NCBI GenBank assembly: GCA_037305845.1
Contig: CP147778.1
Location: 2,528,001-2,592,000, forward strand
Length of the DNA stretch: 64,000 nt
Direction of reading: 5' to 3'
Source: Candidatus Freyarchaeum deiterrae
Lineage (GTDB): Archaea; Asgardarchaeota; Jordiarchaeia; Jordiarchaeales; Jordiarchaeaceae
In this document: positions 17,318 through 20,435 of the stretch, in pieces
Layout: each line of letters opens with the position of its first letter
How positions within the stretch are numbered: the stretch's first letter is position 1
Made by a program: the position numbers and the translations under genes
Notes under the pieces: generated by a model
The model's database searches: none
What the model was told of the DNA's origin: nothing
What the model saw: only the letters and a program-made list of their open reading frames with translations

Positions 17318-18211
17318 ATGGGAAAACTTGAACCGGATGCGGGAAAGATATTAAAAATGATGGAGAAGAAAGATGTTAAGGGGCTGATAGGTGCCTTAAT
17401 ACAGGCCTCCAAGCCTGAATGCACGAGGCTGTGTGGCAGAAAAATGGCGGAGTCTATAACAGAGGAATTCGTCAGAATAGGGAAACCAGCAGTTGGCCCA
17501 CTCATTAAAACTCTATACTCTGCCCACTTTGAAGCTCGAGAATATATAGCTGAGGCTCTTGCAAAGATAGGAGAACCTGCTGTGGACCCCCTTATCTGGG
17601 AGCTGAGGACTAAAAATAGAAACGTTCGGGAGTACGCAGCAAAAATCCTTGGGCGGTTAGGCGATAAGAGGGCGGTAGAACCACTAATAAAAGCACTTGA
17701 AGATGATTCTAGCTGGATTCGAGATAAAGCAGCATGGTCTCTGGGAGAGTTGGGTGATAAGAAAGCAGTAAAACCACTAATACAATCACTGACCGAATAT
17801 CCCGATATGCGAAATGCAACAATAGAGGCTCTGGGAAAGCTTAGTGATAAGAGGGCGGTAAAACCACTAATAAACGCACTGGATGACGAATACCCACAAG
17901 TTCGAAGAAGCGCAGCATGGGCACTCGGAAAGATAGGGGATGAGAGAGCAGTAGAACCCCTCTTTCGAGTCATAAGCGATGGCAAATCTTATCTGACAAA
18001 CACCCAATCCATGGGAGAAGAAAATGTTAAACAACAACAAATGCTAGGCCAACAAGTGGATACCGTACTAACCGCAGCAGAAGCTCTTGGCACAATGGGT
18101 AAACTCGAATTAAAACCCCTCATACAGGCATTAGGCGAAGATGATCCTTCAGCTCGCGAAGCCGCGGAATGGACCTTAGCGCAGGTCAAGGAGAGAACGC
18201 GAGAAAAGTAA
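17318..18211 (+). CDS. HEAT/PBS-lyase repeat protein
   Basis: Repeated AVxPLIxALxD...VRxxAAxALGxxGD. Confidence 0.9.
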   Translation: MGKLEPDAGKILKMMEKKDVKGLIGALIQASKPECTRLCGRKMAESITEEFVRIGKPAVGPLIKTLYSAHFEAREYIAEALAKIGEPAVDPLIWELRTKNRNVREYAAKILGRLGDKRAVEPLIKALEDDSSWIRDKAAWSLGELGDKKAVKPLIQSLTEYPDMRNATIEALGKLSDKRAVKPLINALDDEYPQVRRSAAWALGKIGDERAVEPLFRVISDGKSYLTNTQSMGEENVKQQQMLGQQVDTVLTAAEALGTMGKLELKPLIQALGEDDPSAREAAEWTLAQVKERTREK

Positions 18212-18344
18212 TGAACAGCCAAAAGCATATAAAACGACTCAGTAAGATCTTTAAATCTTTTACTTCCCCACCTTAGATAGTGTCAACTTAAGATTAATTT
18301 GAAGGGATTTCCCTACTCTCAGTTATTATTCGACCAATTTTTGA

Positions 18345-18607
18345 GAGCGGATCAACCGTGAGGCCTGTAAACTTCGAAATCTGCGTCAAAAGCTTTCCAA
18401 TGGAAACCATTTGGCATCACTTTCCGCATAATGAGGATTTATCCAACCAACGACAAAATGATAATCCTAGAAGAGAAATGCATAGGCTGCGGAGTGTGCT
18501 CCCACAAATGCCCCAGAGAAGCCATAACCATGATAAGAGTGCGGGAAGAAATACTCGAGGAAAAGATTAGTGGGGCAATGATAGATTCGATAAGGAAAGA
18601 CTACTAA
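18345..18607 (+). pseudogene. Frameshifted 2[4Fe-4S] ferredoxin-domain remnant
   Basis: Across frames: INREACKL/EICVKSFPMETIW..NEDLSN/DKMIILEEKCIGCGVCSHKCPREAITM; a CAAC duplication causes one of the shifts. Confidence 0.7.
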
Positions 18608-18703
18608 TTTCGTTCAAAATGTGTTCTTATTTACGGTCATGTGTCTGCTAGGTAACTCTTCTTAGGTTTGGTAAGACTTATTTGTAAGAAAATGTAAGAT
18701 ATA

Positions 18704-18976
18704 TTGGTGGTAATTGTGGTATCGTTTGAGCAATTGTTTAAGGTTAAAGTTACCTCTAAAGGTCAGGTTGTTATTCCTAAACCCCTCCGCGAATTTTACC
18801 ACATTAGAGAGGGCGAAGAAATACTTATGATTCCTCTTGAGAAAGGCGTTCTAATAAAGAGAGAGGAGGGGTCATCTGAGTTAAGAGGACTACTCAAAGA
18901 GCTTGACGTTGTTGACGTAATCGAACTTGAGGATATTCTCGCTGAAGCGAAAAGAAGCCTCACAAAGATGGTTTAG
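18704..18976 (+). CDS. AbrB/MazE-family antitoxin
   Basis: KVTSKGQVVIPKPLRE..I.EGEE. Confidence 0.9.
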   Translation: MVVIVVSFEQLFKVKVTSKGQVVIPKPLREFYHIREGEEILMIPLEKGVLIKREEGSSELRGLLKELDVVDVIELEDILAEAKRSLTKMV

Positions 18977-19366
18977 ATGAAAACATACGTATCAGATGCC
19001 GTGGCTTTCCTATACTTTCTCTTGGATAGGCTTCCACACGGAGCAGATGAAGTTTTTAAAGAAGCAGAAAAAGGACGGGCTGTTGTATACTTGCCCACGA
19101 TAGCCGCAGCCGAACTCTATTATCTTTTCGAGAAAAAAGGATGGCTAGAACGGTGGGATAAACTCAGAGAAAAAATGTCAGAAGCAGTAACATTTCGATA
19201 TTACCCCTTTGATGAAAAGGTTTTAAACCTCCTTAAATCTAGCAAGGCTAAGGAACTTCATGACAAAATCATAATTTTAACAGCTAAAGCTCTTAAGGCG
19301 GATGCGCTCCTGACAAAGGATGAGGAACTGGTAAAGATTAGAGAAGTAAACATTATTTGGACATGA
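18977..19366 (+). CDS. vapC: PIN-domain VapC toxin
   Basis: YVSDAVA, AAEL, LHD.II..TA, LLTKD. Confidence 0.88.
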   Translation: MKTYVSDAVAFLYFLLDRLPHGADEVFKEAEKGRAVVYLPTIAAAELYYLFEKKGWLERWDKLREKMSEAVTFRYYPFDEKVLNLLKSSKAKELHDKIIILTAKALKADALLTKDEELVKIREVNIIWT

Positions 19367-19698
19367 GCAATTATTGACTTCCACTTTAAAGAATGCCGTG
19401 CACCAATAAAATTTTCATTCATGGTTGTGTTTTAAGAAGCTAATTAAACTTGACTTATGCCCGAATACATTGTCAACTTCTTTTAGGGGATCCCTCAAAA
19501 TTAATCTTAAGTTGACACTATCCCACCTTAGAAGACTAGATGAGAAAGCAGGCAGCAGTTCACTTCAGTTTATAAAAATCCTTTTAATAAAAAATTCCAA
19601 AGTTTTTAATATGGTTCATTGTTCCTGTTTTCAATTCCTTATGAAGCGGGACAACGAATGGTAGACCAAAACTTAATAAAACGAGCAGAACGATAATA

Positions 19699-20391
19699 AT
19701 GAGAGTACTTGGGAGGTACCCTACCGTGTCAAGAAAATCTCAGCCAGACAAAAGCAACGCTAAAACGGGGGAAAAATATGATAAATTGCTCGAAAAAGGC
19801 AACGCTCTTCATAAGCTTGGTAAACTTGACGAAGCACTAAAAAGTTTTAACGAGGCAATAAAAATAAACCCAGAAGATCCAGAAGTCTGGACTAATAAGG
19901 GTGCTGCTCTTTTTGGGCTGGGCAGGTTTGAAGATGCCCTAGAATGCTTTGATGAGGCAATAAAAATAAACCCAGAAGATGCAGTAGCATGGTATAATAA
20001 GGGTGCTGCTCTCAATGAACTTGGTAGAGCTGAGGAAGCCGTAAAATGCCATGACGAGGCAATAAAAATAGACCCCGAAGATGCGGGAGTCTGGACTAAT
20101 AAGGGTGCTGCTCTTTTTGGGCTGGGCAGAATTGATGAAGCCCTAGAATGCTTTGATGAGGCAATAAAAATAGACCCCGAGTATGAAAACGCTTGGACTA
20201 ATAAGGGTGCTGCTCTTTTTGGGCTGGGCAGAATTGATGAAGCCCTAGAAAGCTATGACGATGCAATAAAAATAAACCCAAAGTATGCAAGAGCATGGTA
20301 TAATAAGGGTGTTGTCCTTCATGATCTTGGTAGAGATGAGGAAGCCAAGCGATGCTTTGATGAAGCCGCCAAATTAAACCCAGAGCTTTAA
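19699..20391 (+). CDS. TPR-repeat protein
   Basis: About six 34-aa repeats (WxNKGxALxxLGRxxEALxCFDEAIKIxP) with near-identical DNA units. Confidence 0.92.
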   Translation: MRVLGRYPTVSRKSQPDKSNAKTGEKYDKLLEKGNALHKLGKLDEALKSFNEAIKINPEDPEVWTNKGAALFGLGRFEDALECFDEAIKINPEDAVAWYNKGAALNELGRAEEAVKCHDEAIKIDPEDAGVWTNKGAALFGLGRIDEALECFDEAIKIDPEYENAWTNKGAALFGLGRIDEALESYDDAIKINPKYARAWYNKGVVLHDLGRDEEAKRCFDEAAKLNPEL

Positions 20392-20435
20392 CCCTCATTC
20401 AGATAGGTAGGTTGCCGCAACCCACATGAAATCTC

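Follow-up and report, generated by a model that had tools for sequence, protein, structure and literature searches.

The cassette at positions 18276-19522 of the window, the 64,000-nucleotide stretch of Candidatus Freyarchaeum deiterrae DNA analysed here, is a transposase-less derivative of an archaeal IS6-family insertion sequence (IS), its ends being homologous to those of an IS6 element of the same genus. It measures 1247 bp, lies in a complete single-contig host genome (G000) of 3,576,204 bp, recovered from California wetland soil (PMC11291895), and encloses the broken tail of an iron-sulfur protein gene together with an intact AbrB-PIN toxin-antitoxin (TA) pair, a cargo which derives from Freyarchaeia chromosomal genes and has host-like composition. 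The closest known kind of element is the mobile insertion cassette, and no earlier one was found for the IS6 family or for Asgard archaea.

An earlier reading of this DNA from the letters alone (the sequence-only reading) had described perfect 25-bp terminal inverted repeats and a perfect 8-bp target duplication around 1247 bp, containing a captured, frameshifted ferredoxin fragment and an intact AbrB-VapC pair and lacking a transposase, and this description was borne out in all its parts. The outer nucleotides of the repeats agree at 25/25 positions, and complementarity of the arms (18276-18308 and 19490-19522) is 94% over 33 nt. With up to three mismatches allowed the end 25-mer occurs at two sites in the window, namely the arms, shuffled sequences (n = 100) leading one to expect none, and in the 3.58-Mb host genome no further copy of the cassette ends was found beyond these two arms, either with the 25-mer at up to three mismatches or with blastn-short using both ends. 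The direct repeat CCACCTTA lies directly against the repeat tips at 18268-18275 and 19523-19530 (8/8), a match that would arise by chance at a fixed position with a probability of about 1.5e-5. Identity of the direct repeats runs to 11 nt in all, the surplus being overlap with the first and last bases of the ends, and the true duplication is 8 bp because intact family members have the element tip at the same GA. No transposase gene was detected inside the 1247 bp by ORF and profile checks or by tblastn with an intact transposase, and no RNA family was found in 17800-20000 by Rfam at a permissive threshold. The cassette is present as a single copy in the complete genome, with no second insertion of it known. 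Its features are listed below, related genomes being given as G001 to G005, contigs as C and loci as L.

18268-18275, no strand: left target-site duplication, identical to 19523-19530 and abutting the tip; the 8-bp length is as in three other members of the IS lineage.
18276-18351, plus strand: left end, an IRL-type repeat (perfect core 18276-18300) with about 50 bp of the IS 5′ region and a few decayed transposase codons; against the IRL side of the G005 IS its identity is 76% over 76 nt, and against the intact IS from the metagenome it is 85% over 40 nt; IRL class in the end alignment.
18350-18611, plus strand: captured 3′ fragment of an Fe-S protein gene; 79% nucleotide identity to G004:C90 (L016 4888-5150), with matches also to G005:C96 and G003:C145.
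18612-18667, no strand: spacer; no significant match in the genome, in relatives or at the candidate source locus.
18668-18715, plus strand: upstream region of the TA operon with a short direct repeat, presumed to act as its own promoter/operator; from here on the cassette is homologous to chromosomal TA loci in G001 and G004.
18716-18976, plus strand: gene for an AbrB/SpoVT-type, VapB-like antitoxin of 86 aa, counted from the GTG start at 18716; matches to MazE_antitoxin and TIGR01439 AbrB.
18977-19366, plus strand: PIN-domain toxin gene (VapC-like), 129 aa; Pfam PIN match, the start codon abutting the antitoxin stop.
19386-19485, no strand: AT-rich spacer, 31% G+C; no significant match anywhere searched.
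19486-19522, minus strand: right end, an IRL-type repeat (perfect core 19498-19522); 89% identity to the G005 IS IRL and 88% to the intact IS, with the IRL-specific subterminal palindrome and not the IRR sequence.
19523-19530, no strand: right target-site duplication, identical to 18268-18275.

The family of the ends was established from related elements outside the host genome. On contig 55 of G005 (L015 8134-8905) there is a 772-bp IS whose ends are closely related to those of the cassette; it is flanked by an 8-bp duplication of its own, and its transposase, which is broken, weakly matches DDE_Tnp_IS240. G002 holds several copies of the IS lineage, mostly at contig ends, with ORF pieces matching NCBIfam transpos_IS6 and PF13610. 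An intact IS was found by a degenerate end pattern on the metagenome contig Ga0315314_1000030 (L043 1306-2082), the flanks of which are 82-93% identical to the host genome such that the contig is taken to come from a close relative. This element is 777 bp long, is flanked by an 8-bp duplication without mismatch and encodes a transposase of 248 aa, which scores 134.8 bits over its full length on NF033587 (cut-off 125) and shows the E--F---K-R spacing described as a signature of archaeal IS6 transposases (PMC6807381). The cassette and the intact IS (at its IRL) share their first 17 nt, and over 34-40 nt they are 85-88% identical. Alignment of the ends separates two classes in the IS lineage, an IRL (transposase-proximal) class with a subterminal GGAGGG..CC palindrome and an IRR class with a different conserved sequence, and both cassette ends are of the IRL type in inverted orientation, with 76 bp of IS sequence kept at the left and about 37 bp at the right.

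The cassette tip is GA and not GG, and the core GTGTCAAC is only partly like the IS6 consensus (GG tip, cTGTt, caaa); many archaeal IS6 members are without the GG tip and have longer repeats (PMC6807381). Members of the family are 700-890 bp in length and generate 8-bp target duplications (PMC7986276), and a duplication of this length is also seen in the G005 copy and the intact metagenome copy, with 6/8 positions matching in a miniature inverted-repeat element (MITE) of G004. The duplication length and end homology of the cassette fit IS6 membership; an own transposase gene and a length of about 700-890 bp it does not have, and because it is transposase-less and 1247 bp long it is regarded as an IS6 derivative and not as an IS. 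The sequence-only reading had assigned the ends to the IS256 family, in which an 8-bp duplication and inverted repeats of about 25 bp would be compatible with those seen here. That assignment is to be given up, the probability of an IS256 derivative being vanishingly small, since the cassette ends show direct homology to those of an IS whose transposase passes the NCBIfam IS6 model and there is no Transposase_mut (PF00872) in the complete host genome. The G+C content of the IS (54-55% at L043 1306-2082, L015 8134-8905 and L020 863-1635, as against 39-46% for the hosts) suggests that the IS6 lineage entered the genus from a G+C-richer donor. At 39% G+C the cassette is close to the genome (40.7%) and not to the IS (54%), and its cargo is therefore native-like with the IS being compositionally foreign.

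The antitoxin ORF of the TA pair, with a mechanical start at the TTG at 18704 and a GTG at 18716, ends at 18976, where its stop adjoins the PIN start at 18977, and it scores 29 bits on Pfam MazE_antitoxin (cut-off 24.7) and 38.9 bits on TIGR01439 AbrB (28.3); the toxin ORF (18977-19366) scores 33.4 bits on Pfam PIN (cut-off 23.6). The operon region as a whole (18668-19385), with its about 48 bp of upstream sequence, has a counterpart at 77-79% identity in a chromosomal AbrB-PIN operon that occurs in G001 and G004, the two genes being kept together in G001 and the PIN gene being broken in G004. Measured against G001, dN/dS is about 0.06 for PIN and about 0.18 for AbrB, and by these ratios the TA genes are under purifying selection. 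Among 28 PIN homologs, D7 is invariant and E46, D96 and D115 are conserved in at least 90%, and the homologs carry the annotation VapC family toxin. Homologs at 91% and 87% identity occur in other Freyarchaeota contigs and the subfamily is patchy, being present in 3/400 Asgard species representatives. A structural model of the toxin (pLDDT 66, moderate confidence) has its best fold matches only to PIN/VapC structures (3zvk, 9h6a and 6sd6; probability 0.96-1.0, with weak E-values).

In common with type II VapBC systems, the gene for a small AbrB-fold antitoxin abuts that for a PIN protein of 129 aa, which keeps the acidic quartet and has its fold matches among VapC structures. The pair differs from them in that a search with the PIN sequence against solved structures returned nothing meaningful and no close relative, in that neither TA protein matches a PADLOC defence model, and in that its function is a predicted one. 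On this comparative evidence the AbrB-PIN pair is probably a working type II VapBC module that would disfavour loss of the cassette.

Upstream of the pair, the ORF at 18431-18607 matches Fer4 (Pfam) and is what remains, out of frame, of the tail of a larger gene. The fragment to which it belongs (18350-18611) corresponds to the last ~85 codons and the stop of the gene for a 361-aa 4Fe-4S protein, to which it is 79% identical, and is broken by four small indels with loss of cysteines. Its differences from the G004 gene number 7/8/31 at codon positions 1/2/3 in addition to the 4 indels, and given this third-position excess the fragment diverged mostly while it still belonged to a functional gene. 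The substitution pattern suggests that it was captured and broken recently. In G003, G004 and G005 the source gene sits between the genes for a P-type ATPase and a helicase. A full-length copy is absent from the host genome, in which the best paralogs are 55% identical and 14 kb separate the orthologs of the ATPase and helicase genes, the Fe-S gene being missing from the interval.

Inside the 14-kb block that replaces the Fe-S gene there is a 74-nt AbrB relic (G000:C1:2853222-2853295; L044 15223-15296) which is 68/74 (92%) identical to the cassette antitoxin as against 60/74 for the G001 and G004 genes. At a distance of 70 bp from this relic lies a duplicate of the helicase 3′ end (139 bp, 91%; G000:C1:2853365-2853503, L044 15366-15504). 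This arrangement suggests that the Fe-S gene tail and the TA pair may once have been neighbours at the ATPase-helicase locus and have been captured together, although the spacers give no confirmation of this, and the site of the AbrB relic and the helicase duplicate is possibly the scar of the capture event. The spacers at 18612-18667 and 19386-19485 had been considered by eye to resemble the helicase-proximal region of the source locus, an origin that was dropped when their alignment scores proved no higher than those of shuffled controls.

Searches of the complete host genome with the PF13610 and NF033587 profiles and by tblastn with the intact transposase identified no IS6 transposase, the last returning only a 40-aa N-terminal and a 43-aa C-terminal relic, and because the genome has neither an IS6 nor an IS256 transposase the cassette is unable to move now. 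The sequence-only reading had proposed that the inverted repeat be used to look for a partner element, and related ends with a cognate IS do exist, the latter in relatives of the host, so that the refuting outcome named in that reading did not come about. There are three IS6 relics in the host genome, relaxed searches with the end core yielding one related element and one relic. The related element (G000:C1:3478235-3478896; L018 2236-2897) is 662 bp long with IRL-type ends on both sides and no intact transposase, and contains the first ~40 transposase codons, a TPR-gene fragment of about 90 bp and one copy of an unrelated 110-bp repeat; no clear target duplication was found at it. The relic, from the IRR side (G000:C1:3033115-3033307), consists of the last ~43 transposase codons and the end, 74% identical to the intact IS. 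Many decayed and internally deleted IS6 copies are present in congeners, and the G004 MITE of the same IS lineage is 225 bp long (L030 1332-1556). At a solo IRL in G002:C182 no partner end was found within 5 kb, and viral contigs scanned with the end pattern of the IS lineage gave no match. In a published survey of mobile elements in this Asgard genome no integrated elements were discernible (PMC11529989).

Other mobile DNA was encountered in the course of these comparisons. An intact IS6 element of a different lineage lies on G001:C556 (L059 1443-2199; 757 bp, transposase scoring 136 bits on NF033587), with its ends in common with those of the cassette lineage over the first ~11 nt only. In the close relative represented by the metagenome contig, about 1.56 kb comprising a 162-aa gene and the intact IS (L043 612-2173) is present where the host has about 36 bp (G000:C1:1396560-1396597), and the host homolog of the 162-aa gene is located elsewhere (3059959-3060354; 83% aa identity). 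Positions 509-618 of the second IRL/IRL element had been compared with an insertion by the G003 Fe-S gene as a possible link to the source locus, a candidate that was rejected as these 110 bp belong to a distinct repeat found dozens of times in G003 and G004. The ~110-bp repeat (L018 2744-2853; for example G003:C177:21505-21610 and G003:C145:33572-33680) is most numerous in G003 (at least 35 copies), followed by G004 (about 15) and then by G001 and G005 with fewer; the host genome has one copy in the second element and a weak 48-nt match (79%). By its appearance the repeat is an unrelated MITE present in high copy number in the genus.

The origin of the cassette is best explained by mobilisation in trans, and it is likely that the IS6 transposase of an autonomous copy used the two IRL ends by a replicative cointegrate route which, with homologous recombination, would leave the 8-bp duplication, the helpers being lost later. 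On this account two inverted IRL-type ends would have come to enclose host-derived DNA in the former place of the transposase gene, both ends would have been bound by the DDE transposase acting in trans, and the 1247-bp unit would have been inserted between the HEAT-repeat and TPR genes as a cointegrate subsequently resolved by recombination between the two element copies. Loss of the autonomous copies from the host lineage would then have stranded the cassette, and the AbrB-PIN operon with its own promoter may penalise loss of the cassette or of its carrier replicon. Replicative cointegrate formation with resolution by homologous recombination is described for IS6 transposition (PMC7986276). 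Several points speak against this account: in bacteria, IS6 composites with their flanking copies inverted should not progress beyond the cointegrate (PMC7986276), the archaeal IS6 branch being mechanistically unstudied (PMC6807381); the cassette is known from one insertion; no clean empty site was found at the G002 locus or in the metagenomes scanned with the left flank; and published population data gave no sign of integrated elements (PMC11529989). The second IRL/IRL element without an intact transposase and with a TPR-gene fragment would, from its layout, support such a habit of the family. Movement in trans is not visible in the host genome because no transposase is present there. The recent transposition in trans and the addictive effect put forward in the sequence-only reading stand as proposals.

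The same structure would be left by a composite transposon decaying in place, in which two complete inverted IS6 copies with IRL outward were inserted by their own transposase and both IS bodies were then deleted in situ, with no mobilisation in trans. Both cassette ends are of the IRL type as the outer ends of inverted copies would be, the left end retains 76 bp of IS including decayed transposase codons, the genus abounds in decayed or internally deleted IS6 copies, and intramolecular IS6 transposition makes inverted IS pairs around an inverted segment (PMC7986276), all of which agrees with this course of events. It is nevertheless unlikely, as it needs two independent ~700-bp deletions of the G+C-rich IS body that spared the outer 25 bp, with no IS-body sequence left in the cassette, and the second element of the same layout better fits a class of short IRL/IRL elements than a repeated double decay; moreover inverted IS6 composites are predicted to come to a halt as cointegrates (PMC7986276). 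More improbable still is the assembly of the cassette in another Freyarchaeia lineage and its arrival by horizontal transfer on a plasmid or virus that the TA pair stabilised. The missing full-length Fe-S source gene, with paralogs no closer than 55%, is consistent with such an arrival, as are the PIN homologs in other Freyarchaeota contigs and the patchiness of the subfamily, but the AbrB relic in the host, exactly where the Fe-S gene was lost, points to a source within the lineage, and neither vector sequences near the cassette nor a match to the end pattern in viral contigs was found.

Beyond the trans-mobilised origin favoured here, it may be speculated by analogy with Pack-MULEs that IRL/IRL IS6 derivatives form an Asgard gene-capturing class that would take up gene fragments and operons by illegitimate recombination, with a captured TA pair keeping the cassette by addiction after the autonomous copies die out and the AbrB relic being a capture scar. 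This wider proposal is held only tentatively.

Mobile insertion cassettes such as MIC231, derived from IS231 in the Bacillus cereus group, consist of IS ends and passenger genes without a transposase, which is needed in trans. In keeping with this, the cassette has IS ends, a target duplication of the parental length, passenger genes and no transposase, and it would likewise depend on a transposase supplied in trans. The parent of MIC231 is an IS4 element and that of the cassette an archaeal IS6, and the cassette differs further from such elements in having two ends of the same (IRL) type, a TA operon beside a dead gene fragment, a single copy and no partner in the genome, its mobility being a proposed one. 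The sequence-only reading had called it a MITE-like cargo cassette, of which the cargo-carrying and transposase-less part stands and the MITE part does not: MITEs are small (tens to a few hundred bp), non-coding and multicopy, and the cassette has 1247 bp, two intact genes and a single copy. The term mobile insertion cassette, cited in PMC4133298 and PMC6199540, is the better one.

For the whole IS6 family ISfinder lists two MITEs (MITEBth2 and MITEHarch3, of 227 and 336 bp) and one passenger-carrying IS, ISDsp3 (PMC7986276, PMC6807381). The two MITEs are, like the cassette, IS6-derived and non-autonomous with 8-bp duplications, and unlike it they are gene-free, whereas ISDsp3 is likewise an IS6 passenger carrier with an 8-bp duplication and keeps its transposase. 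Compared with the 225-bp G004 MITE of the same IS lineage, the cassette is five times larger and carries genes. Among bacterial elements, TIME-based mosaic non-autonomous transposons resemble it in being transposase-less with transposon ends that move the intervening DNA, and the TA-carrying Tn3-family element Tn4662a resembles it in having a TA operon inside a transposon (PMC4133298). Tn3-family elements differ in their 38-bp ends, 5-6-bp duplications and dedicated resolvase, and they are bacterial with mobility shown by experiment; in that study the TA operon was in an autonomous transposon and not in the non-autonomous one (PMC4133298).

The cassette, like the other IS6 relics, records that IS6 elements were once active in the host lineage, which later lost the transposase. 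To the ISfinder list for IS6 it would add a non-autonomous derivative that carries genes and comes from an archaeon. Should mobility in trans and TA-based retention both be true, this would be a compact case of non-autonomous elements moving functional operons and outliving their helpers. At present the cassette is a well-defined and fairly ordinary mobile-element relic with no new mechanism.

The cassette is separated by 57 bp from the HEAT-repeat gene that precedes it and by 168 bp from a TPR gene that follows. The only relative keeping the HEAT-HdrA locus is G002, which is 76% identical there and has the HEAT gene, a 180-bp spacer and then hdrA (L017 4150-4331, G002:C449, compared with window 19531-20435). 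The G002 spacer aligns with the left flank of the cassette as far as the duplication, where a TPR-gene remnant of about 70 bp follows at once, G002 having lost the DNA from the insertion point to within the TPR gene. From this alignment the order HEAT-TPR-HdrA is taken to be ancestral, and G002 has no trace of the cassette but is deleted at the critical point. The empty site that the sequence-only reading had proposed to look for was not found in clean form either at the G002 locus or in the metagenomes, where an exact left-flank pattern that fits both filled and empty alleles gave 0 matches. The target sequence of the cassette occurs within the 3′ end of G002 hdrA, which was judged a coincidence given the opposite strand and coding context. 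Population analysis of the host genome has shown even read coverage (PMC11529989), which fits a fixed insertion of the cassette. The TPR gene downstream of the cassette contains, at 19804-20384 of the window, tandem units of 102 bp in four copies that are 77-81% identical, and has several paralogs in the genome.
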